A DNA stretch of 34,265 nt from Magnetococcales bacterium (GCA_015228995.1 JADGCM010000003.1:1-34265); one strand, 5' to 3'. Shown: positions 14,716 through 34,251, counted from the stretch's first letter. Translations and numbers: made by a program. Notes: generated from the letters alone by a model not told the origin.

Positions 14716-15321
14716 ATGAAATTTCGTCGCTGCCCAACTTGTGTCCACGCGGCTGTGTGGAGTGATTTTTTCTTCACCTTGGCCCAGGCGCTGTTTCAAA
14801 CCGCCATCGCCTTTGTTTCCGGCAGCATGGCTTTACATGCCCAGGGCATTTACTCCTTTGCTGATTTTACCACCAAAGGGATCAATTTGGTCAGCGTTAA
14901 AATGGCGGCGCGGTTCCCGCAACTCCCCTTTATATCGGCGGCTCTGATCGGTCTTTGCCTAATAGGGGGAGCCTCGTTATTCCTGATCCATAATTTTCAG
15001 GTTGCTAGCAGCGAACCCAGCCATATTCCCAATTTATTGGCATTTTTTGGTTCCCTATTATCTGCGTTGGCCAGCGAATTGATGTTTCGTTATCTGGCCT
15101 GTGTGGGGCAAGAAAATAGCTACCCTGCCATCACGGCAGCCGCTTGGGACAACCGGATGGACGCCCTGTCTTCTCTGGCAGTCTTTGTTGGTGTGCTGGC
15201 TGCCTATCTGGGTTGGCCGGCGGCTGACCACTGGGTCGCGGTTGCGGTCGCCTTGTTGGTGGTTTGGGTTGGCGGCAAAATTGTGGTTGACGCACTGCAA
15301 CATCTGCTAGATGTGTGGTAG
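14716..15321 (+). CDS. MamB-like cation diffusion facilitator, transmembrane domain only (no C-terminal cytoplasmic domain)
   Basis: MKFRRCPTC (C6xxC9), SGSMAL...YSFAD and ELMFRYLACVGQENSYPAITAAAWDNRMDALSS closely track magnetosome MamB as recalled (MKFENCRDC...ELMYRYQICVGNENNSPAIIANAWDNRSDAISS); the ORF stops just after the last TM (LLDVW*). Confidence 0.8.
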   Translation: MKFRRCPTCVHAAVWSDFFFTLAQALFQTAIAFVSGSMALHAQGIYSFADFTTKGINLVSVKMAARFPQLPFISAALIGLCLIGGASLFLIHNFQVASSEPSHIPNLLAFFGSLLSALASELMFRYLACVGQENSYPAITAAAWDNRMDALSSLAVFVGVLAAYLGWPAADHWVAVAVALLVVWVGGKIVVDALQHLLDVW

Positions 15322-15343
15322 AATAGGGACTTTTTATATGTAT

Positions 15344-17128
15344 CCGACATTCCGCAGTTGTTTTGTAGTTTTTTTGATTTTACGTTCTGCTGCCCCTCCC
15401 ATGTTCTACGATGAAGTCGTATTGTTTTACACGGTATCTGTGTAAACAAGATTGACGAGGTGGTGATGAGCATTCAAGTGAACCAAGTAAAGGCGTTGAT
15501 TCTTGATCATTTTGGTTTGGTGTCTGCTGTGGCAACGGACTTGGGTATTGTGGGCATGATTGATGCGCGGCTTCCAACGACAGATCGTTCTCATGCAACC
15601 ATGGGGCAACGGACGTTGGCCATGATTTTGAATGGACTTGGTTTTTTGAATGATCGGCTCTATATGGTGCCGAGGTTTTTTCAGAACAAGCCGCTGGAAC
15701 GTCTTATTGGGCCTGGTGTTAAGGCTGAACATTTGAATGACGACGCACTGGGCCGGTTACTGGATAGCGTTGCTGAATATGGAACGACGAAGCTGTTCGG
15801 TGAGATTGCATTCGAGATTGGAAGTAAACAGGGGTTGATAGGACGATCAGCCCACTTAGACACAACTAGTTTAATGGTTGTCACCCATGGTTACTCGAAG
15901 GATTACAGGAATGACCTGAAGCAGGTTGTTTTGTCGTTGACGACGACTGGGCCTGCTGGTTTTCCGATCTGGTTCGAAGCCTTGGCCGGTAATAGCAGTG
16001 ATAAGGTCTCCTTCCATGAGACACGAGACCGGGCAACAGAATTTCAGAAGCAGTTGTCAGCGAGTCATTTTCTGTATTGGGTAGCGGATTCATGTTTATA
16101 CACTGTTGGTAAACTGTTGTCTGTAACCGATACAATGTGGATACCAGGGTTCCTGACACGGTGGGTGATGCAAAAGCACTGACCATGATGCCACGGGAAC
16201 AGTTTGAGTGGCAGGAGATCGGCAACGGTTACCAGATAGCGGGAATTGGAAGCAACCATGGTGGTTTACGACAGCGGTGGTTGCTGGTCTATTCTGAACA
16301 GGCCGCCAAAAGGGAGACAGAAACATTCAATAAAAGCCTTGAGAAGATTGATGAGAAGCTCAAGAAGGACGTGTGGCATTTGGAGAATCAGTTATTTACG
16401 GAAGAGTCCTGTGCTGATAAGGCATGCCATGAGTTCAGCAAGAAACTACGCTGTCATCATGCAGAGTATACGGTTACAGCTGTGTTCAAGCACACCCAGC
16501 GCGGTCGTCCGAAAGCTGGTCAGCAAGCTGCTGATATTCGGATATGCGGTAAAGGTGGCATGGTCACGTCATGATGCTGCCATAGACGCCGAACTGAGGA
16601 GTAAGGGCCGTTTTGTTTTGGCGACGAATCAGCTAGATCATGATGAGCTGAGTGATTTGGAGTTTTTTCAGGAATACAAGGACCAGAGCCAAGTGGAGGG
16701 AGGGTTTCGATTCCTCAAGGACCCGTGGTTCATGGTAGACTCCATATTCTTGAAGACTCCAAAACGGATTGAAGCGTTGATGATGATCATGACCCTGTGT
16801 CTGATGGTTTACAACGTTGGCCAGTATCAGTTGCGAGAAAAGCTTTCTGCACAAGGTGGCTTCCTTCCCAACCAAGTTGGTAAACAAGTTCAGAACCCCA
16901 CCTTGCGTTGGGTTTTCAGAGTCATGGAGGGGATAACAATAGCCCGTGTGATGCTTGGTGGAACGATCAACGAGACTGTCCAAGAGATCGTGTGTAATGT
17001 GGATGATTTGCACGAAAAGATCATCCGCTATTTTGGCAAGCATGCCATGAGTATTTATGGTGTGACTTGAATGTTATAGCCTGTTCGTGAAAATGAAAAA
17101 AATGGCGTCAACAACTGCGGAATGTCGG
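15344..17128 (+). mobile_element. IS1634-family insertion sequence (1785 bp)
   Basis: Perfect 19-bp TIRs ccgacattccgcagttgtt (15344-15362) / aacaactgcggaatgtcgg (17110-17128); 6-bp TSD ATGTAT at 15338-15343 and 17129-17134. Confidence 0.92.
15460..17070 (+). pseudogene. IS1634-family DDE transposase, frameshifted into three ORFs
   Basis: DHFGLV, LNDDALGRLLD, HLDTTS, HGYSKDYRNDLKQ, GNSSDK, ADSCLY (ORF1); TRVP, QRWLLVYS, RGRPK (ORF2); GRFVLATN, YKDQSQVEGGFRFLKDP, PKRIEAL, PTLRWVF (ORF3). Frameshifts near 16140 and 16540. Confidence 0.9.
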
Positions 17129-18274
17129 ATGTATGGGCGCTTTCTGTCTTTTCTGGGCACACGGATCAACATTCGGGTCACGTTCATCCTGATCGGTGTT
17201 GTGGTGCTGTTACAGATGGCCTTGGCCACCTATGCTTAGCTGGTCGACAGCGGATGTTACTGCAAAAGGCCGCTAAAGAGTTTTTTATCCTCATGGATGG
17301 CCAGAGTTTGCTGGTGGAGTCAACCCGTCGCCAACTCGACACCACGATATGGGGCTTCGATGCCACACTGGAAGCGTTAATCAATGGTGGTTTGGCACCA
17401 GAACGTCTGGACAAACAATCGGCTATGGTGGTTGTGGTGACGCCACTGCCTCATGTGAAGGTGCAGTTGCTACAAATCCAAACCGGTTGGCGCCCTTTAC
17501 GTGATGCGCTGCAATTGGCGCTGGAGGAAAATGCTTGGCAACGGCTATCACAAGAGACGAGAAAGCGGGTTGCCCACGACAGCACACAATTGCTGGAAGC
17601 TATGGATCGTGCCACCACCATGATCGGTCAAGTTTCCAGAGAACAGATCCAATTCGTGCATACCGGATTGACTCGCAGTGCGATTGGCAGCGTCGTTTTT
17701 GCTGTCAGTTTGCTGCTGTTTTGGGTGTGGCGTTACGTAACGTTGGTGGGGCAATTACACCGTTTTGGCGATCATTTGGTAGCGCTGGAGCAGGGCAAAT
17801 TGCTCTATCGTAGCCACGGCGACACTTTTGTGTCGGAGCTGGCTTTTTTTGGTGAGCGCATCAATGCGACAAGCGATGCGGCAGCTAGCGAATGTGGGCG
17901 ATCCTCCTTTTGATGTACGTGCTATCAAACAGGCCCACATGAAATGGTTGGGACGGTTGGAGCATGTGGTGCGCGGTCGAGCTCGCTTGCGTCCGGAGGA
18001 GGTGGCCAGTGGCCATGAGTGTGCCTTTGGCAAGTGGTACGATAGCGCTGGCAGCGAAATATTCGGTCAGTTGCCCCTCTTCCAAGAGATGGGCATTGCC
18101 CACATGGCCGTTCATGAAAAGGCGCGCGCCATCGTTGTACTGGTTGCCAACGGAGAAACTGAAGCGGCGGTTGCGGCCATGGATCAATTTGACCTCTTGC
18201 GGCGCGAACTGTTCACTTATCTAGATGCCCTATATGTTGACCCGGATCAGAGGCGGCAGCTACCAACCAACTAA
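17129..18274 (+). pseudogene. Decayed chemoreceptor-like gene: TM, PilJ/NarX-like sensor, TM, HAMP-like, CZB domain; no MCP signalling domain
   Basis: ATG at 17129 gives MYGRF...VTFILIGVVVLLQMALATYA* (TM1, TAG at 17237-17239); a second frame gives LAGRQRMLLQK (PilJ-like motif) and TM2; a third frame gives AHMKW...HECAFGKWY...AHMAVHE (CZB zinc ligands). Confidence 0.7.
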
Positions 18275-18297: not shown

Positions 18298-19506
18298 ATG
18301 AAACGTAGAGAATTTCTTCAGTCGTCTATGGCCATGGCCGCCGGTGCGGCCTTACCGACTTTGGGGGCAGCAGCGGAGCCGGCCTCAGTGGGCAAGCCCG
18401 TGGTCAAGAGCTACCGACAGTTGGGCAAGACAGCCATTACCATGAGTGATATCTCCTTTGGGGCGGGCAAGTTGGCTTCTGCATCAATGATTCTGCGTGC
18501 CATCGATCAGGGGGTTAATTATTTCGATACCGCCCCTGATTACGGTAGTAGTGAAGCCTTGATCGGCGAGGCCATGACCAAGTTCAAGCAACGCGATAAA
18601 ATTTATATCGCTTCCAAGTATTGTGAGGCAATTCCCTATCCAGCCCATTTAGCTATTGGTAAGTCTAAGGCCGATTATATCGCCGCTGTCGATGCCAGCT
18701 TGAAACGGATGAACTTAGATTATTTGGATGTCGTTTTTGTCCATGCTATTGGTGAGAAATCTGCTTCGGTAGAGCAAGAGCAGCAGCGGCTGCTAGATGC
18801 TACCATGCTGGAGGCAACGGAGGCCCTGAAAAAAGCCGGTAAAGTGCGTTATTTAGCGGTTTCTTCGCACGGTCCCAACAACCTGGAACCCTTATTGACA
18901 ACGGCAGTGGCCAGCGGCCACTATGATATCATCATGACCGCTTTCAATTTCATGAAGTTTCCCCAATTGCCCGAAGTTCTCAAAATGGCCGCAGCTCGTG
19001 GCGTTGGCATCATCGCTATGAAAACTTTGGCGGGGGCCAAGGAAAGCCAAGTGGAGGCCGGAGCGGCTGTTTTTGAACATGCTGCCTTCCGTTGGGTACT
19101 GAAACATCCTCAGATAGCTGGTCTGGTGGTTACGATCAAAACAGTGGACGATTTGAATCTTTATCTACAGGCCTCTGGCAGCTCTTTTGCGGCGGCCGAC
19201 CAACAAGCATTGGATCTCTACGCGGCGCGCCATGGACAAAATTATTGTCGTACTGGCTGTGGTGACTGTATGGGCTCTTGTCCGCAGGGTGTTGATATTG
19301 CCAATATCTTGCGTTACCAAATGTACTTTGAAGACTACGGCGACGAAAAACGAGCGATGCAAAGCTATGCGGCGTTGAGCCATTCGGCCTCACCCTGTGC
19401 CAGTTGTCAGCAACCGAGCTGCACGGCAGCTTGCAGTCACGGCTTGCCGGTAGCCAATAAGCTACAAGCGGCGCATCGGACGCTATCGTTTACTATGGTC
19501 GCTTGA
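18298..19506 (+). CDS. Tat-signal aldo/keto reductase with C-terminal 4Fe-4S domain
   Basis: MKRREFLQ twin-arginine signal with AAA cleavage site; YRQLGKT, GVNYFDTAPDYG, ASK, FVHA, GIIAMKTL; CRTGCGDCMGSCP and CASCQQPSCTAAC. Confidence 0.88.
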   Translation: MKRREFLQSSMAMAAGAALPTLGAAAEPASVGKPVVKSYRQLGKTAITMSDISFGAGKLASASMILRAIDQGVNYFDTAPDYGSSEALIGEAMTKFKQRDKIYIASKYCEAIPYPAHLAIGKSKADYIAAVDASLKRMNLDYLDVVFVHAIGEKSASVEQEQQRLLDATMLEATEALKKAGKVRYLAVSSHGPNNLEPLLTTAVASGHYDIIMTAFNFMKFPQLPEVLKMAAARGVGIIAMKTLAGAKESQVEAGAAVFEHAAFRWVLKHPQIAGLVVTIKTVDDLNLYLQASGSSFAAADQQALDLYAARHGQNYCRTGCGDCMGSCPQGVDIANILRYQMYFEDYGDEKRAMQSYAALSHSASPCASCQQPSCTAACSHGLPVANKLQAAHRTLSFTMVA

Positions 19507-20450
19507 TGGCTGCTGAAGCGCCGGTAGCCGTACGGTTGCTGTTGTTAGTGCTGTTGCCGTTGTTGGCAGCGGTGTTGTATGGGCGGGGGCAGCATTACGA
19601 TTCTACTTTGCTGGACTTCAAATCGGCGCGCAACCCGGTGACGGTGCTGTTGCCGCACCAAGCCGGTGATTGGCAACGTCAGGCTGAGGTGCGTTTGTTC
19701 GGTAAAGATAACCTCTACGAGTACATCAACGGCCATGCTGAGTATTTTTTAGGTGCCGGTTTTCGCTCTTTGGTGGTGGCCGAATATCGGTTGCCGACCG
19801 ACACTCGGCCATCGGTGGTCGCTGATGTCTACGACATGGGGGAAGCGATCAACGCCTTTGGTGTCTTGATGGAGGAGATGGGCCCCACCGGCCAATCTGT
19901 TGACATCGGCGAGACTGGCTTACAAAGCCAGCGCAGTCTGGGTTTTACCAGCGGCCCCTATTACGTCAAATTGGCCGCTTTTGCCGATCATCTACCGCTA
20001 TCGACGCTGGCGCAAACGATCAACAAGGCCTTGTTCAAAACGGCCGGGCCTGCTCAGGGTCGCATCTCCTGGCAAGGCCTTTTTCCCGATCTGGGCACGG
20101 TCACCAGCAGCCGCTTTATCAAGGAAAATTACCAAGGCTGGAGTTTTCTGCAACGTGTGGTCGAACGCAGTTTTATCCGCGCCGATGGTACCGTGATCCG
20201 TGCCTTCAGCGTCTCTGGCACAGCGGAACAGATGGCTGCGGTGCAACAAGCGTTGCTGACATTCATGCGCCAGGAGGAGAATAAGGTAACGGATACCCAG
20301 GTCGATGGAATGCGAATCCTGCAGATCACGGATCGTTACGAAGGAGATTGGATTTTGCTGCCGGTTAATAAGGGTTGGTTGGGGGTTTTTCATCCCCTGG
20401 ATTCGCTGTTGCAACAGCAACTAAAGGCTTTTATGAGCTCCCATGGATGA
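19506..20450 (+). CDS. Membrane-anchored conserved protein, DUF6599-like
   Basis: N-terminal TM; FGKDNLYEYINGHAEYFLGAGF, DVYDMGEAINAFG, GPYYVKL; overlaps both neighbours. Confidence 0.65.
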   Translation: MAAEAPVAVRLLLLVLLPLLAAVLYGRGQHYDSTLLDFKSARNPVTVLLPHQAGDWQRQAEVRLFGKDNLYEYINGHAEYFLGAGFRSLVVAEYRLPTDTRPSVVADVYDMGEAINAFGVLMEEMGPTGQSVDIGETGLQSQRSLGFTSGPYYVKLAAFADHLPLSTLAQTINKALFKTAGPAQGRISWQGLFPDLGTVTSSRFIKENYQGWSFLQRVVERSFIRADGTVIRAFSVSGTAEQMAAVQQALLTFMRQEENKVTDTQVDGMRILQITDRYEGDWILLPVNKGWLGVFHPLDSLLQQQLKAFMSSHG

Positions 20451-21468
20451 GAATGATAAAAAGCGTGTTGGCTCCCGCATCAATAAAGTCGAGCCAGCCT
20501 GGAGTCGACGCCGTCTTTTAGTCGAAGCGGGTATCACTACAGCAACGGCAGCGGCTGTGGGCGCCGTTGGCTACTGGGGTTACAGTTCTGAGGCGGTGCG
20601 GCATGCACCGCAGCCGATTTTGACCCTTAAAGACTTCCGAGTGGCGGCCAATACCCTGTACCCATCGCTGGTAGTGGTGCGTGGCGATGCGGTGGCAAAA
20701 ATGGTAGCGGAAGCATTGACACTGTTAGGCGGTATGCAGCGCTTTATCCAACGTGGTGATCGCGTCTTATTGAAGCCCAATGTTGGTTGGGATCGCCAAC
20801 CAGAGCAGGCGGCCAATACCAACCCCGAGGTTGTGGCGGCGGTCGCCCATCTCTGCCGGGAGGCTGGTGCGGCACAGGTATGGGTTACCGATTGCTCCAT
20901 CAACGATCCCCAACGTAGCTTTGTCCGTTCTGGCATTGAATTAGCTGCCCAGCAGGCTGGAGCGACCGTCAAATTACCAGCCAGCAACGATTTTTACCTC
21001 ACCAATATGCATGGCAGTCTCCTCAAAAATTGGCCCGTGGCGCGGTTCTTCCACCAAGTCGATAAGGTGATCAACCTGCCGGTGGTCAAGCATCACTCTC
21101 TAAGTGGCTGCACCGTGGCGATGAAAAATTGGTACGGGGTGTTGGGAGGGCAACGCAACCGCCTCCATCAGGACATCCATACCTCAATTGTTGATTTAGC
21201 CGCTGCTCTGCGACCGACGCTGACCATCGTTGATGCCACGCGGGTGTTAAAACGCAATGGTCCTTCCGGGGGCAGCCTGGATGATGTCGCACTGGAGAAC
21301 ACCTTAGTGGCTGGTCTGGATGAAGTCGCCTTAGATGCCTGGGCGTTGCCTCTGTTGGAATTGACGGTGACGCAGGTACCCTATTTGGCCATGGCTGAGG
21401 CGCGCGGTTTGGGAACCGCTAATTGGCGCAGTCTCCATTGGCTTGAACGTCAGCTCGGATCTGGGTGA
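20443..21468 (+). CDS. DUF362-domain protein with twin-arginine-like N-terminus
   Basis: SRRRLL plus hydrophobic segment; GDRVLLKPNVGWDR, ANTNPEVV, INLPVVKHH, AMKNWYG, PTLTIVDA, DEVALDA. Confidence 0.85.
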   Translation: MDENDKKRVGSRINKVEPAWSRRRLLVEAGITTATAAAVGAVGYWGYSSEAVRHAPQPILTLKDFRVAANTLYPSLVVVRGDAVAKMVAEALTLLGGMQRFIQRGDRVLLKPNVGWDRQPEQAANTNPEVVAAVAHLCREAGAAQVWVTDCSINDPQRSFVRSGIELAAQQAGATVKLPASNDFYLTNMHGSLLKNWPVARFFHQVDKVINLPVVKHHSLSGCTVAMKNWYGVLGGQRNRLHQDIHTSIVDLAAALRPTLTIVDATRVLKRNGPSGGSLDDVALENTLVAGLDEVALDAWALPLLELTVTQVPYLAMAEARGLGTANWRSLHWLERQLGSG

Positions 21469-21477
21469 GGGTGCGGG

Positions 21478-22989
21478 ATGTTGCCCAATTTGCGTGCCAT
21501 TCGCCGCCTATACGCTGGCTTCTTTTTGGTGCTGTTCCTGTTGCTGTTGTGGTTGGCCGACTTTAGCCACCTGCAGGGCTATGAGGTTAGCCTGTTTTTG
21601 GAGCTTGACCCTCTAACTGCTTTGGCGGGCGGTCTGACCAGTGCCACCCTCTATCGTGGTCTGGCGCTGTCGTTGTTAATCATCATCTTGACGCTGTTTT
21701 TGGGCCGGTTTTTTTGCTCCTGGGTCTGCCCATTGGGGATCATCAATCAGATCACCAGCCATCTTTTTACGCGGCGGCGACCGGCAGAAGAATATAGACG
21801 CAACCGTTATCAACCGATCTTTCGCATCAAGTATTACCTGTTGACGGCGCTATTGGTTATGGCCGCTCTGGGGGTGTTGCAGATTGGTCTATTGGATCCC
21901 ATTGCCTTGATTACCCGTTCTTTTGTTGTGGGTATCTGGCCTGCCTTGCAGCAGGGCGGGGCTGGTTTTTATCTATCACAGCCCTATTTTATCGGCGGTG
22001 TTTTGATCGCTTTGATTTTATTGGCTATTCTGGTAGCTAATCGCTTTATGACCCGTTATTGGTGTCGAGTGCTGTGCCCTTTGGGAGCGCTGCTGGGGCT
22101 ATTATCATGGCGACCACTGCTCCGTATCCGTCGCGATGTCGATAAATGCAACGATTGCCACAAATGTCTCCAATTTTGCCAAGGTGGTTGTGACCCCGAC
22201 GGGGCCTTGCGGGTGAGCGAATGTCATGTCTGCATGAATTGTATCGAGCAATGCCCGGATGGAGCACTGCACTACGGTCTGGCACAACCGCGCAGCTCCA
22301 TCCACCAGCCGCTTGATGTCAACCGCCGCCGCTTGTTAGAGAGCGGTGTGGTGGCGATGGCTTTTGTTCCCTTGTTGCGCAGTTCTTATTCATCGGCGGC
22401 TTCGCCGCACCCAGCCGTCATTCGTCCGCCTGGATCGTTGCCGGAGCTAGATTTTCTCGCCCGGTGTATTAAGTGTGCAGCCTGCATGCGCGTCTGCCCG
22501 ACCAACGTGCTGCAACCGGCCCTGTTAGAGGGAGGTCTGGAGGCCCTGTGGACGCCGATTTTGGTGAATCGTTTGGGCTATTGTGAACACCACTGCGTCT
22601 TATGTGGTCATGTCTGTCCCACCGGTGCCATTCGTCCGTTGACCGTAGCAGCCAAGGTCGGTACGACCAACCCATCTGAGCCCATCAAGTTGGGGACCGC
22701 CTTTTTCGATCACGGTCGTTGTCTGCCGTGGGCCATGCATACCCCGTGCATTGTCTGTGAGGAGGTGTGCCCGACCGCTCCCAAGGCTATTTGGTATCAG
22801 AAGACAACGATTACCGGTCGTGATGGCCAGCCAATCTCTTTGAAACAGCCTTACGTGGAGCCCGCCCGCTGCATCGGTTGTGGTATCTGCGAAAATAAAT
22901 GTCCTGTCAGCGACATGGCAGCAATTCGGGTGACATCGGTGGGGGAGAGTCGTTCTACCAAGAATGTCATGATTCTGCGTTCTCCATGA
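21478..22989 (+). CDS. Membrane polyferredoxin (NapH/MauN-like membrane domain fused to a NapG/MauM-like domain)
   Basis: Several TMs, two CxxxCP motifs (FFCSWVCP, YWCRVLCP), two 4Fe-4S motifs, internal NRRRLL plus TM, then IRPPG and four further Cys clusters. Confidence 0.88.
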   Translation: MLPNLRAIRRLYAGFFLVLFLLLLWLADFSHLQGYEVSLFLELDPLTALAGGLTSATLYRGLALSLLIIILTLFLGRFFCSWVCPLGIINQITSHLFTRRRPAEEYRRNRYQPIFRIKYYLLTALLVMAALGVLQIGLLDPIALITRSFVVGIWPALQQGGAGFYLSQPYFIGGVLIALILLAILVANRFMTRYWCRVLCPLGALLGLLSWRPLLRIRRDVDKCNDCHKCLQFCQGGCDPDGALRVSECHVCMNCIEQCPDGALHYGLAQPRSSIHQPLDVNRRRLLESGVVAMAFVPLLRSSYSSAASPHPAVIRPPGSLPELDFLARCIKCAACMRVCPTNVLQPALLEGGLEALWTPILVNRLGYCEHHCVLCGHVCPTGAIRPLTVAAKVGTTNPSEPIKLGTAFFDHGRCLPWAMHTPCIVCEEVCPTAPKAIWYQKTTITGRDGQPISLKQPYVEPARCIGCGICENKCPVSDMAAIRVTSVGESRSTKNVMILRSP

Positions 22990-23035: not shown

Positions 23036-23536
23036 TCAGGCTACCTTCTGATAAGCGCTGTGTTTAGCGCCACAAATCGGGCACTGATCCGGTGCTTCAC
23101 CAAACACGGTATGACCACAGACGCCGCAGATGTGCAACATCTCGTGGTCCAGATCCTGGCCCTGCTCCAGTGCAGCGATGGCCTGCTTGTAAAGATCGCT
23201 GTGGACCTTTTCAACTTCCATGGCTTGGCGCATGCCCTGGGCAGCCCGCTTCTCCCCTTCCTCCTCGGCGGTGGCCACCATACCGGGATACATCTCGGTC
23301 ACTTCGTAATCCTCTCCAGCCATGGCTTCTTTCAAATTATCCAGGGTGGAGTGGATACCGCCCATATTGCGCAGGTGCGTGTGGGCATGCAGGGTTTCTG
23401 CCTCGGCAACAGCGCGGAACAGGTTGGCAATAACCGGGTAACCTTCTTGCTCGGCTTTTTTAGCAAAAGCCAGATACTTGCGATTGGCTTGGCTCTCACC
23501 AGCAAAAGCAGCTTTGAGATTGTCTTTGGTTTTCAC
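23036..23536 (-). CDS. rbr: Rubrerythrin
   Basis: NLKAAFAGESQANRKY, EAETLHA, GEDYE, VEKVH di-iron ligands; C-terminal CGVCG...CPICGA. Confidence 0.95.
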   Translation of the reverse strand: MKTKDNLKAAFAGESQANRKYLAFAKKAEQEGYPVIANLFRAVAEAETLHAHTHLRNMGGIHSTLDNLKEAMAGEDYEVTEMYPGMVATAEEEGEKRAAQGMRQAMEVEKVHSDLYKQAIAALEQGQDLDHEMLHICGVCGHTVFGEAPDQCPICGAKHSAYQKVA

Positions 23537-23548
23537 GATGGGGACTCC

Positions 23549-24682
23549 TTACTGATTGAGTTCTTTGATCAGAACTGATTTTTGGGTCGTAGCCTGACCA
23601 GTCAGGACAAAACCATCCAGAATGGCCTGCGCATTGAAATGGCGCCCGGTAACACCTGAATCGGATGGTTCTATCTCCCAATGCCCCTCTGTGGTACCGG
23701 GAGGCAAGGTGATGATAGGATATAACGTGGTTTTGATGGCAATGGGCATGACCGGATAGGTGACCGCCGTTTCCTGCCCGCAAAGGGTCGTTGCCAATGC
23801 CTTGGCTCCAGCCATCAGTGGTGCGACAAAGGGTAGATTACGACCATTGACTGCGGCGCAATCGCCCAAAGCGAAAATATCGGCAGCGCTGGTTCTTAGA
23901 TAGCCATCGGTCACAATGCCGCGCTCAACCTGCAGACCAGCCTGTTGCGCCAAGGCTGTAACCGGTCGAACCCCCACTGCCGACAGGATGAGATCGGCCG
24001 TGACAGTAACGCCATTTTTAAGTACTGTCCGGTAACCTGTGCCCGATTTTTCGATGGGACCATTAACGGTCTCAAGATGCCAGACAGCTCCATGACTGGC
24101 CAAAGCCTGCTGCACAGCCCGCCCTGCTTGTTCCGGCAACAGTGAGCTGATCGGCCAGCGATCCGGGCCAATAATGAGGACCTCACGTCCCGATTGCAAT
24201 AAATCGTTGGCAAACTCACAGCCAATCAGACCGGGTCCAATGATAGCGACGCGGCGTGATTGTTGGACCAGTTGCCGAAAATGGCCATAGTCGTCAAGGT
24301 TGTTGACCGACAGCACCTCCTGTGCACCGTCTCCGGTCAAAGGCAAGCGGATGGGGGTTGATCCAATCGCCAACACCAGTTTATCGTAAGTCAAACAAGT
24401 ACTACCGAAAGTGACCGTGTGTTGCTGTGGCTCAATAGCTGTCACAGGCGAGCCGGTTTTGATTTCTGCCTGTAGCTCGGATGCCATTTGCTCAGCCGTA
24501 GCCAGTGTCAGCGCTGTCGTATCCTTGTTTTGCGCCAAAGCTGTTGATAACAATGGCTTGGAGTAATAACGCCCCTCATCGGCTGTGATCAAAACCAGAG
24601 ATCCTGAATATTTCTGGCGACGCAGCTCCTTGGCTAGAGTGTAACCGGCTAGACCAGTACCAATAATACAGATAGGGTTCAT
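23549..24682 (-). CDS. rubB: NAD(P)H:rubredoxin oxidoreductase (RubB/NorW-like)
   Basis: IIGTGLAGY, YSKPLLS, IIGPGLIGCEFANDL, IFALGDCA, LPFVAPLM; adjacent to rubredoxin. Confidence 0.9.
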   Translation of the reverse strand: MNPICIIGTGLAGYTLAKELRRQKYSGSLVLITADEGRYYSKPLLSTALAQNKDTTALTLATAEQMASELQAEIKTGSPVTAIEPQQHTVTFGSTCLTYDKLVLAIGSTPIRLPLTGDGAQEVLSVNNLDDYGHFRQLVQQSRRVAIIGPGLIGCEFANDLLQSGREVLIIGPDRWPISSLLPEQAGRAVQQALASHGAVWHLETVNGPIEKSGTGYRTVLKNGVTVTADLILSAVGVRPVTALAQQAGLQVERGIVTDGYLRTSAADIFALGDCAAVNGRNLPFVAPLMAGAKALATTLCGQETAVTYPVMPIAIKTTLYPIITLPPGTTEGHWEIEPSDSGVTGRHFNAQAILDGFVLTGQATTQKSVLIKELNQ

Positions 24683-32565: not shown

Positions 32566-34251
32566 TTATTTTTGGTTCCATAGCACCGAACTTAGTTCCA
32601 ACAGCTCTCTTGCTGAAGAGAGCACACGAGCTGGCATGGGCTCGACCCGACCACGAATCTCCAATTGATGGAGCGGGTAGTCCACCTGGGGCAGGTTCGC
32701 CAGTTCAAAGACCGCCTCGGAGATGATAACCTGGGCATCGTACGCCTTGGTTAGACTTTCCAAACGGCTAGCGGTATTGACGGTATCCCCTATCGCTGTC
32801 GTCTGTCGTGCGGAACCGTATCCCATCTCACCAACAATGGCTGTACCAACATGAATGCCGATACCGATGCGTAACGGCTCGCTCAGCTCCTCTGCCAAAC
32901 TGGCGTTGAATTGATCCAGACTGTGTCCCATGGAACCCGCAGCACGGATGGCGTCTCGGCAACCCTGACCAACGTCGCCATTCAGACCAAACAAGGCCAT
33001 CACCCCATCACCAATAAATTTATCAAGTTTGCCACCGCATGATTCCACCGCCTCCCCCATAAAGAGAAAATAGCGATTGAGTACGAATAGAACATCAAAG
33101 GGCAGCCGCCGCTCCGAAAAAGAGGTAAATCCACGTAAATCAGCAAACAGCACCACAACATCCATCTCACGCCCATGGCGCTGTTCAACGGCAGCCAGCA
33201 CATCAGACGCCCCAACATTGGCTTTCAATAGTGGCCAAGCAGATAAATCTTGCTGCGCCCTCGTTTGACAAGCCAAACGAATGCTGCTGGGAGCCCCGAT
33301 CTGGTTCAAAACCTGGCGTTCCAACGGACTGGGCGGCAGTAGCGATTCACTACCGCTACCAACCCGCACCCGGCAAGTCGAACAGCGACCACGGCCACCA
33401 CACAAGCTGGGATGATTGATGCGCGCCTGCTGCAAGGTCTCAAGCAGCGTGGCGCCCGGAGTAATAGGAACGCGGTGACGGTCGGCATAGCGCAATAGCG
33501 GTCGGTTACCAACCCGACTGGAAAGGTAGCGCCGCAACACAGGTGACATCAAGGCGGCAGATACCAAGGCCAACAATCCAGCCTGAAACCAATTGGCCAT
33601 ATTGAGGGTTGGTGGCAACATCTCTAGGGCCAATCGAGTCTGCTGTGCCAATCTGCTAAATAATTCTGGGTCTGCGTCAGCCAGCCGGCGGATATGCAAG
33701 CCAGAAGCAATATACCCGGCCAAGGCCAGTGTTACCAAAACCCACATCAATGGCGGCCACAGCCAGTGCCAGCGCTTATACCAGGGGTGCAATCGAGCCC
33801 AGGACCAAACACCGATGGAAGCGTGGGCCCAGACCAATAACAACAACACCCCCTGGACAACGCCATCGCTGCCGTAGGCAACCCAGAGGCTGAACTGAAC
33901 CAAAGGATAATTGACATCCACATGGTAATAATCATCCAACATCAAGGCTTTGACCAGATGGGGAGCCAACAGCGGTAAAATCAGCAATCCCAGCCAAATT
34001 TGGGCGCGCTGCCAAGTAGGCAACAACAGATGACGGCGCCGCTGCAGCGTCCACAAGCCCAAAGCAGGATGGAGCAACAGGGCGGTGTAGAACACAAACA
34101 TCAGCGGCGGATGATTCCATATCTCGGTCAACCACACTGCCGCCCAGTCCTGCACCTCAATGGAGATAATCCCAAGCGCATGGTTGGTGAAATGGCTAAC
34201 AACAAATAACGCCAGCAACAGGCCACTTATCAGACGCAACCGATCTTGCAC
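32566..34251 (-). CDS. Class III adenylate cyclase with His-rich membrane domain and 2Fe-2S ferredoxin domain (CyaC-type)
   Basis: TM His residues (SHFTNH, LLHP, APHL, WAHA); CGGRGRCSTC...RLAC; LFADLRGFT, DKFIGDG, TAIGDTVNTASRLE. Confidence 0.9.
   Translation of the reverse strand: MQDRLRLISGLLLALFVVSHFTNHALGIISIEVQDWAAVWLTEIWNHPPLMFVFYTALLLHPALGLWTLQRRRHLLLPTWQRAQIWLGLLILPLLAPHLVKALMLDDYYHVDVNYPLVQFSLWVAYGSDGVVQGVLLLLVWAHASIGVWSWARLHPWYKRWHWLWPPLMWVLVTLALAGYIASGLHIRRLADADPELFSRLAQQTRLALEMLPPTLNMANWFQAGLLALVSAALMSPVLRRYLSSRVGNRPLLRYADRHRVPITPGATLLETLQQARINHPSLCGGRGRCSTCRVRVGSGSESLLPPSPLERQVLNQIGAPSSIRLACQTRAQQDLSAWPLLKANVGASDVLAAVEQRHGREMDVVVLFADLRGFTSFSERRLPFDVLFVLNRYFLFMGEAVESCGGKLDKFIGDGVMALFGLNGDVGQGCRDAIRAAGSMGHSLDQFNASLAEELSEPLRIGIGIHVGTAIVGEMGYGSARQTTAIGDTVNTASRLESLTKAYDAQVIISEAVFELANLPQVDYPLHQLEIRGRVEPMPARVLSSARELLELSSVLWNQK

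Follow-up and report, generated by a model that had tools for sequence, protein, structure and literature searches.

The nickel-pincer nucleotide (NPN) is a cofactor that is built by the three enzymes LarB, LarE and LarC. To our knowledge, the nickel-pincer enzymes described so far, namely racemases, epimerases, a hydride shuttle and a cyclodeaminase, are cytoplasmic and redox-neutral. In about 15% of surveyed genomes, larB, larE and larC occur without larA and the users of the cofactor have not been identified, and also most cyanobacteria make the nickel-pincer cofactor without LarA (PMC11796402). Aldo-keto reductase (AKR) homologues that adjoin lar genes have been found to bind the nickel-pincer cofactor (Semersky et al., Nat Chem, June 2026, PMC13524815). 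In one of them, NphT, H144 ligates the nickel, K200 tethers the cofactor, and the classical tetrad does the acid-base chemistry; NphT is set apart by a small, capped cofactor cavity that has no room for an AMP moiety, and 427 lar-adjacent and 798 motif-bearing AKRs are counted in the same work. The polyferredoxin PFD of the delta proteobacterium MLMS-1, a NapH-NapG fusion, has been found to be inserted into the membrane by the Sec and the twin-arginine translocation (Tat) systems together, in a Tat-dependent manner (Tooke et al., eLife 2017, PMC5449189). Features of both kinds of proteins come together in a four-gene operon of a Magnetococcales bacterium (GCA_015228995.1), at positions 18298-22989 of a stretch of 34,265 nucleotides (JADGCM010000003.1:1-34265; the whole stretch is called the window in the following), which is the subject of this report. 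The operon encodes an iron-sulfur (Fe-S) AKR with Tat signal, a DUF6599 protein, a DUF362 protein and a polyferredoxin, and we consider it rather probable that the products of the four genes form a single oxidoreductase complex outside the cytoplasm, with NPN (also NPMN) as hydride carrier and a coupling to the membrane.

The four-gene operon and its conservation

The quartet consists of four open reading frames (ORFs) that all point in the same direction:

18298..19506, + strand: Tat AKR with a C-terminal eight-cysteine Fe-S domain (AKR-FeS), 402 aa
19503/19506..20450, + strand: DUF6599 protein with an N-terminal membrane anchor, 314-315 aa
20443..21468, + strand: Tat-signal DUF362 protein, 341 aa
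21478..22989, + strand: NapH-NapG fusion polyferredoxin, 503 aa

The genes are tightly coupled, with the two overlaps and the 9-bp gap that had already been noted in a preliminary description of this DNA, made from the sequence alone. The ORFs of the AKR and of the DUF6599 protein overlap by 1 nt (TGATG), or by 4 nt if a TTG start is used, those of the DUF6599 and DUF362 proteins overlap by 8 nt, and 9 nt separate the DUF362 gene from that of the polyferredoxin. A GGGAGA is found 7-8 nt 5' of the ATG at 18298, and promoter and terminator scans at the locus gave no signal above chance. For the 4.7-kb stretch, a look-up of sequencing runs listed none and no RNA data set either, a result that has no bearing on expression. 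No other gene of the window belongs to the unit. The host genome has 1.96 Mb and is 69% complete, with the window as its contig C42, and the nearest named homologues of the DUF6599 protein come from metagenome-assembled genomes (MAGs) of Magnetococcales.

For a survey of the neighbourhood, as the preliminary description had proposed, one genome per species was scanned with the DUF6599 alignment, the best 80 loci of 262 relatives were kept, and the other quartet members were located therein by tblastn with the window proteins. The order is kept in most of these loci: where there is room on the record, 56 of 71 loci have the AKR gene directly upstream of the DUF6599 gene, 60 of 73 have the DUF362 gene directly downstream of it, and in 52 of 64 the polyferredoxin gene comes next after the DUF362 gene. 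The quartet loci span at least five phyla, with record titles that name Magnetococcales, Thermodesulfovibrionia/Nitrospirota, Chromatiaceae and other Gammaproteobacteria, Nitrospinota, Nitrospiria, Hyphomicrobiales and Thermodesulfobacteriota. Across most phyla, the AKR, DUF362 and polyferredoxin proteins are 52-70% identical to those of the window (about 30% in L077, the most distant locus), and the DUF6599 protein is more divergent, with 30-45% identity. DUF6599 is encoded in 50 of the 56 genomes of the window's own class.

There are also partial loci, which have either only the AKR-DUF6599 pair or only the DUF6599-DUF362-polyferredoxin trio, and it follows from this split that the two halves can be encoded apart. 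In four of five checked genomes with the trio, an AKR orthologue of 59-61% identity is encoded elsewhere. Beyond the quartet and the lar genes that are described below, no family occurs in the flanks of more than nine of the 80 loci; an HtpG gene is found in five. The genes that take the place of a missing AKR or DUF362 gene in variant loci are unrelated housekeeping genes, and the context therefore yields no clue to the substrate.

As many loci come from magnetotactic lineages, a link to magnetotaxis has been considered as well. It was dropped, because the module is also present in Chromatiaceae, Nitrospinota, Nitrospiria, Hyphomicrobiales and Thermodesulfobacteriota, and because many of those MAG sets had been sampled for magnetotactic bacteria.

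The aldo-keto reductase

The first protein of the operon matches Pfam PF00248 (Aldo_ket_red, 4.2e-31) and consists of a signal region (about residues 1-30), a barrel (about 38-310) and an eight-cysteine domain of two-cluster type (317-379); Fer4_9 and TAT_signal are matched with 24.2 and 18.2 bits, both under the cut-offs. R3 and R4 of the signal, the tetrad D77/Y82/K107/H149, the pairs S189/H191 and M241/K242, and all eight cysteines are invariant in 37 orthologues. NphT (PDB 9YEB, the chain numbering of which is that of the paper plus 3) is the second-best match of the protein in the PDB, with 1.4e-14, and in this alignment the tetrad corresponds to D47/Y52/K75/H106 of NphT, S189/H191 to T142/H144, and M241/K242 to I199/K200. 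The best PDB match, 9wk1, is a canonical AKR that has F and S where the window protein has H191 and K242.

An exhaustive search gave 286 representative clusters of the AKR-FeS family at E≤1e-30. The family alignment comprises 129 near-full-length sequences of the best 150 representatives (22 rows of at most 340 residues were left out), with identities of 28-60%. H191 is found in 128 and K242 in 127 of these 129 representatives, both together in 126, the twin arginine in 122, and each of the eight cysteines in 121-126, and the tetrad is less well kept (D77 in 116, K107 and H149 in 113 each). As H191 and K242 are kept above the tetrad, no feature of the Tat-AKR-FeS family as a whole is kept better than the cofactor motif. 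The protein shares three marks of the nickel-pincer AKR family, namely the barrel with the tetrad, the His/Lys motif, and an association with larB, larE and larC in the absence of larA, and its sequence makes it a candidate nickel-pincer (NPN/NPMN) hydride-transfer subunit.

The AKR could also carry a tightly bound NAD(P) through export, with an Fe-S wire for its re-oxidation or re-reduction, in which case the linkage with lar genes would be due to DUF362 alone or to coincidence. With its AKR fold and intact tetrad, the protein is compatible with this, and there is a precedent, as the glucose-fructose oxidoreductase of Zymomonas is Tat-exported with bound NADP. Yet the His/Lys pair of the nickel-pincer AKRs, which is absent from canonical AKRs (PMC13524815), is present here, and it is kept better than the tetrad (126 versus 113-116 of 129). 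Since moreover LarC is encoded in 47 of 50 locus-bearing genomes, and since in the order of L032 (see below) AKR-FeS occurs only in genomes with LarC, bar one fragmentary case, an exported NAD(P) enzyme is improbable.

The AKR-FeS gene is tandemly duplicated in one locus (L052, 1276-3800). Three genomes (G029, G031, G033), the loci of which have Nitrospinota (L043, L047) or Nitrospirae (L049) in the record title and which are among the five locus-bearing genomes with LarA, encode two AKR-FeS paralogues that are 59% and 54-55% identical to the window protein. An AKR-FeS orthologue at G388:C15:22427-23611 has one in-frame TGA that may be selenocysteine, a sequencing error or the mark of a broken gene.

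Linkage and co-occurrence with lar genes

When all ORFs of the 80 loci were clustered to find recurrent neighbours, three families recurred just 3' of the polyferredoxin gene, and these are LarC, LarB and LarE according to NCBIfam models. In L002, for example, LarC (4.8e-60, plus LarC2), LarB (1.7e-79) and LarE (5.1e-86) are encoded directly after the quartet. The larC gene directly follows the polyferredoxin gene in nine of 45 loci with room, in eight of them together with larB and larE. At the level of genomes, LarC is found over cut-off in 47 and LarA in five of 50 locus-bearing genomes, a count that leaves out 30 of the 80 loci, mostly those on short contigs and the most distant ones. In the window's own genome, other contigs hold matches over cut-off to LarB (252.6 bits) and to LarE (270.9 bits), and LarA was not found in this 69% complete genome. 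A genome of the same genus (G069, 96% complete) has LarC. In the window's own class, LarC is present in 49 of 56 genomes, and the four genomes that are DUF6599-positive and LarC-negative are all less than 77% complete.

Two larger taxa were compared in the same way. The GTDB order of the genome with L032 (record title Chromatiaceae) comprises 151 genomes of at least 85% completeness, of which 8 have DUF6599, 15 LarC and 12 DUF362. LarC is present in all 12 DUF362-positive genomes versus 3 of the 139 DUF362-negative ones (Fisher p 2e-15; one of these three has LarA), and in 7 of the 8 DUF6599-positive versus 8 of the 143 negative genomes (Fisher p 2e-7), with p-values that overstate the case because related genomes are not independent. 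DUF6599 and AKR-FeS occur in the same 8 of the 151 genomes (AKR-FeS profile, E≤1e-30), and 5 of the 12 DUF362-positive genomes have neither of them. Among 151 genomes of the class of L039, 128 have both DUF362 and LarC, 6 DUF362 only, 3 LarC only and 14 neither; LarA is found in 6, and LarC in 33 of 33 DUF6599-positive versus 98 of 118 negative genomes (p 0.0075; also here the genomes are related). Of 14 control genomes, six have LarC, two LarA and five DUF362, and four of the five DUF362-positive genomes have LarC. Linkage, co-occurrence, and residues or fold are three independent kinds of evidence, and by these the cofactor assignment is supported.

In two of the control genomes, those of Synechococcus elongatus and Haloferax volcanii, LarC and DUF362 are encoded but LarA was not found; the case of S. 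elongatus fits the puzzle of cofactor-producing cyanobacteria described in PMC11796402. In another genome, one open frame of 914 aa (G024:C3:80946-82964) matches both LarC and LarA on the same strand, and is possibly a LarA-LarC fusion.

The DUF362 protein

The third protein matches PF04015 with 7e-50 (170.3 bits versus a cut-off of 24) and also a cyanobacterial NCBIfam model named Npun_F2552 family (6.8e-26), and its R22 and R23 are invariant in 46 orthologues. DUF362 and LarA belong to the same Pfam clan, CL0471 (PMC11770544). The AlphaFold 2 model of the protein has a pLDDT of 90.6, and all 19 Foldseek chain matches at E≤1e-3, 15 of which are listed, are of the LarA family. In the model, residues 80-309 fit residues 35-270 of LarA with VIA-align Z scores of 16.2-17.4 and a root-mean-square deviation of 2.8-3.1 Å over about 205 residues, and the next unrelated fold reaches only Z 5.3. 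The match covers the N-domain of LarA; there is no C-terminal domain, as the protein ends about 30 residues past the match. Within the matched domain, the spacing H174-10-K184-16-H200 of LarA (its numbering was mapped via a LarA homologue) compares to H218-10-K228-14-H242 in DUF362, and H218 and K228 are invariant even in DUF362 proteins of 21-25% identity. In LarA, K184 tethers the cofactor, H200 is a ligand of the nickel, and H174 is catalytic, as is H108. Divergent DUF362 proteins give sub-threshold Lar_N matches at profile positions 140-196, with a Fer4 insert directly behind in three of four cases. Longer, fused forms of DUF362 were not found at E≤1e-10 in a search that we rate as weak evidence. 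The modelled fold makes DUF362 a candidate for a second nickel-pincer-binding subunit.

It is conceivable, though unlikely, that only one of the two proteins is an NPN client. This would be either DUF362, with the His/Lys pair of the AKR used otherwise, or the AKR, with DUF362 as a carrier, a loader or a non-catalytic partner. DUF362 as the client would agree with its wider association with LarC in the order of L032, where DUF362 tracks LarC in 12 and the AKR in 8 genomes and where 5 of the 12 DUF362-positive genomes are without DUF6599 and AKR-FeS. The AKR as the client would agree with the lack of a LarA C-terminal domain, and apparently of LarA's His108, in DUF362. The separate occurrence of AKR-DUF6599 pairs and DUF6599-DUF362-polyferredoxin trios points to one client as well, but in four of the five trio genomes checked the orthologous AKR is encoded at another place, as mentioned above. 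Against a single client stands also that the AKR, and apparently DUF362 too, has retained a Lys and a His where the cofactor is tethered and ligated in solved relatives, and that both proteins have invariant twin-arginine motifs. As its twin-arginine motif is invariant, the role of a cytoplasmic loader fits DUF362 poorly.

The polyferredoxin and the DUF6599 protein

The N-terminal half of the polyferredoxin (residues 7-266) resembles NapH and the C-terminal half (residues 279-486) NapG. Both model scores are far under the NCBIfam equivalog cut-offs for NapG and NapH (93.9 versus 269 and 82.5 versus 234). By a hydropathy scan, the protein has four strong transmembrane segments, and it has two CxxxCP motifs and two cytoplasmic four-cysteine motifs. 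These are followed by an internal RRR, a weakly hydrophobic segment that remains below the threshold, and four periplasmic four-cysteine motifs. In 35 orthologues, R284 is invariant and R283 and R285 are conserved to at least 90%, and 28 cysteines are invariant on both sides of the RRR segment. The invariant twin-arginine motifs of the operon, together with the Tat dependence of the family member PFD, support export and wiring of the complex.

The DUF6599 protein matches PF20244 with 3e-25 (89.3 bits versus a cut-off of 27) and has one strongly hydrophobic N-terminal segment according to the hydropathy scan. Its AlphaFold 2 model (pLDDT 92.6) consists of a helix at residues 8-30 and two alpha/beta domains. 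The model has no Foldseek match at E≤1e-3; by VIA-align, the first domain resembles the PknH sensor domain (Z 12.7) and the second one TM1622 and folds of the DcrB/Mog1/PsbP type (Z 6-9). A comparison with PDB sequences gave one chance row only, and a search for look-alikes in the atlas gave only the own family and unnamed clusters below 0.9. According to the model, the DUF6599 protein is probably a tether or accessory subunit of the AKR and not catalytic.

The motifs that had been read from the operon in the preliminary description are conserved in relatives. The twin-arginine motifs of the AKR (R3 R4), of DUF362 (R22 R23) and of the polyferredoxin (R284) are invariant in 37, 46 and 35 orthologues, the D/Y/K/H residues and Fe-S cysteines of the AKR are invariant, and the Fe-S motifs on both faces of the polyferredoxin are kept. 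The DUF6599 anchor is seen in the window protein as a strong hydrophobic segment and as a modelled helix.

Proposed mechanism

The periplasm contains no NAD(P)H, so that an enzyme of this type needs a bound cofactor. That the operon encodes a periplasm-facing dehydrogenase with a bound cofactor and an Fe-S wire had been proposed before, and this idea survives, but the evidence on the cofactor points to NPN and not to a trapped NAD(P). In the proposed pathway, LarB, LarE and LarC would make NPN in the cytoplasm, where it would be loaded into the AKR at H191/K242 and probably also into the LarA-like DUF362 at H218/K228. Fe-S clusters would be inserted before export, and the folded AKR and DUF362 holoproteins would then be exported by Tat. 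The membrane-anchored DUF6599 protein would hold the AKR at the membrane, and the AKR tetrad would transfer a hydride between NPN and a carbonyl, alcohol or sugar-type substrate. The two electrons would go one by one through the AKR's two cysteine clusters and then the four periplasmic ones in the NapG-like domain, and would continue via the NapH-like membrane part to the quinone pool and/or to the cytoplasmic clusters. The course and direction of the electrons, the link to the quinone pool and the nature of the substrate are inferred. A prediction of the complex (AKR 30-402, DUF362 55-341, with DUF6599 36-315 as the scored partner) gave 0.55 versus 0.39 for one control, and has no weight either way.

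The same complex might also work in the reverse direction, with electrons from quinol, or from cytoplasmic donors via the cytoplasmic clusters of the NapH part, that are used to form a nickel-bound hydride. This hydride would reduce a periplasmic carbonyl or other electrophile, be it for detoxification or for reductive respiration. By approximate redox potentials, quinol is a poor donor for the reduction of aldehydes or ketones, and there is no conserved neighbour gene that would indicate a role in stress or detoxification. On the other hand, the fusion keeps cytoplasmic clusters that would otherwise have no explained role, a rubrerythrin and a NorW-like reductase adjoin the operon, NapGH is a quinol dehydrogenase that passes electrons outwards (PMC5449189), and NphT acts on sugars in both directions (PMC13524815). 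The reductive version is an alternative of some weight, albeit not a likely one as a whole. Concerning the direction as such, the oxidation of a substrate that feeds the quinone pool is only narrowly favoured over reduction, on the basis of approximate redox potentials.

Several observations weigh against an NPN-dependent complex. The adjacency is limited, as larC adjoins the quartet in only nine of 45 loci. Three of the 50 locus-bearing genomes are without LarC: two are MAGs in which no lar gene was found, and one is a closed chromosome that has LarB and only a C-terminal fragment of LarC. Nor did a search of the window's own genome (69% complete) find LarC. Six DUF362-positive genomes in the class of L039 and, among the controls, the DUF362-positive Bacteroides thetaiotaomicron have no LarC, and the association of DUF6599 with LarC is weak in the class of L039, because LarC is nearly universal there (131 of 151). 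In the profile search by which AKR-FeS was assigned to genomes of the L032 order, only 12 candidates were scored per genome. As to DUF362, the equivalence to LarA residues rests on a fold-level alignment and motif spacing. When aligned by hhalign with seven LarA sequences, H218 and K228 are paired with the equivalents of H174 and K184, but not significantly (E 0.34), and H242 may match His200 of LarA but is not conserved in all DUF362 proteins. An equivalent of the catalytic His108 of LarA has not been seen. The window protein has no match to Pfam Lar_N (PF09861) at E≤0.01, and in the PDB sequences its profile finds no match at E≤10 and the single sequence only chance rows near E 0.9. Finally, in the literature consulted for the analysis, no description of an electron transfer between NPN and Fe-S clusters was found. 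The balance remains on the side of the NPN-dependent membrane-coupled complex, at the rather probable level stated at the outset. The further proposal that DUF362 proteins are a missing, LarA-related class of NPN clients, and that NPN in this operon interconverts a hydride and two single electrons exchanged with Fe-S clusters, a use so far not known for this cofactor, with a link to the membrane, is more tentative and perhaps somewhat less than even.

Neighbouring genes

Upstream of the quartet there are a PilJ-N/CZB pair and remnants of insertion sequences (IS), and downstream, in convergent orientation, a rubrerythrin gene and a gene for a NorW-like reductase. Directly 5' of the operon, an ORF for a PilJ N-terminal sensor (17122-17913) overlaps an ORF with a CZB zinc-binding domain in another frame (17828-18274), and this pair is either a single frameshifted sensor gene or two genes. 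Further upstream (14716-17070), an ORF of 201 aa for a cation-efflux (CDF) protein is followed by transposase-like ORFs that are split across two to three frames (DUF4277 at 15460-16182, then 16137-17070). This region resembles a decayed IS element that may have truncated the neighbouring CDF gene. On the - strand, 23036-24682 encodes the rubrerythrin and the NorW-like rubredoxin reductase, convergent to the operon; the latter matches the NorW model with 3.2e-94, under the cut-off, and a NorW-like gene near the quartet is also found in L015 and L030. Near the end of the window (32566-34251, - strand), one ORF joins a 2Fe-2S ferredoxin domain with an adenylate/guanylate cyclase domain. None of the genes nap, nos or mau is found within the window.

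Implications

If the proposal is true, an electron-transport chain of the membrane is coupled to a nickel-pincer enzyme on its extracytoplasmic side, and bacteria could carry out periplasmic hydride chemistry where NAD(P)H is unavailable. If NPN exchanges electrons with Fe-S clusters, it joins the flavins as a converter between hydride and one-electron transfer. If DUF362 is indeed an NPN client, it would explain the many genomes, for example those of cyanobacteria, in which the cofactor is made although LarA is absent. The operon makes the question of the NPN users in the approximately 15% of genomes with only larB, larC and larE testable, as it offers two candidate cofactor users, the exported Fe-S-fused AKR and DUF362, each with defined residues for mutagenesis, and as a system for their co-expression is already available. 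With 286 clusters of AKR-FeS and the module in 50 of 56 genomes of the window's own class, a common part of the physiology of anaerobes and microaerophiles is at stake.

Comparison with known systems

As had been presumed in the preliminary description, no established function is known for DUF362 and DUF6599: literature searches yielded no paper on DUF6599 and no function for DUF362, which one paper uses as an outgroup to LarA, and the terms Npun_F2552, PF04015, IPR007160 and COG2006 gave nothing relevant. A solved DUF362 structure was also not found by sequence search of the PDB. In the literature searched, no paper joins nickel-pincer AKRs to Fe-S clusters or to Tat, and the NphT paper alone joins the nickel pincer with an aldo-keto reductase. 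A search for terms in the main text of PMC13524815 found no iron-sulfur, 4Fe-4S, twin-arginine, periplasm or DUF362, and those of its supplements that were searched contain no Magnetococc, PF04015, DUF362, PF20244 or Fer4; the AKR subfamily of the window may be listed in its large supplementary tables, among the 427 lar-adjacent or the 798 motif-bearing AKRs. No paper was found that describes the four-gene module. The earlier idea of an undescribed system thus holds for the operon arrangement in the literature found, but not for two of its components, as NapH-NapG fusions and nickel-pincer AKRs are already known.

Pyrroloquinoline quinone (PQQ)-dependent glucose and alcohol dehydrogenases are periplasmic and quinone-linked. 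If the complex works oxidatively, it would resemble them in that sugars, alcohols or aldehydes are oxidised outside the cytoplasm and the electrons enter the respiratory chain with no involvement of NAD(P). Neither the fold nor the cofactor is related, so that this is a functional analogy only.

The polyferredoxin is of the PFD type, with a NapH-like part of four Sec-type transmembrane segments that carries the CxxxCP motifs and the cytoplasmic clusters, a twin arginine before the weak fifth segment, and a NapG-like domain with four periplasmic clusters. It is not the NapGH of periplasmic nitrate reductase, considering its scores below the cut-offs and the absence of nap, nos and mau genes from the window; its partners are AKR-FeS, DUF6599 and DUF362. 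The text consulted of PMC5449189 treats the membrane insertion of PFD and not its function or partners.

With the LarA superfamily (5HUQ, 6C1W), DUF362 shares the Pfam clan, a His-10-Lys spacing and, according to its model, the fold of the cofactor-carrying N-domain. It differs in that it is Tat-targeted and lacks the C-terminal domain, a Lar_N match and, as it seems, the equivalent of His108, and in that other members of the DUF362 family carry Fer4 inserts.

Closest to the catalytic subunit is NphT. The AKR of the window has the same barrel, and its tetrad, nickel-ligand His and tethering Lys can be aligned with those of NphT, like the association with larB, larC and larE where LarA is absent is shared. 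NphT, however, is a soluble protein of 291 residues that has been reported to be a monomer and to catalyse a redox-neutral disproportionation (PMC13524815), whereas the AKR of the window has a Tat signal and a conserved eight-cysteine C-terminal domain, and its gene shares an operon with those of DUF6599, DUF362 and a membrane polyferredoxin.

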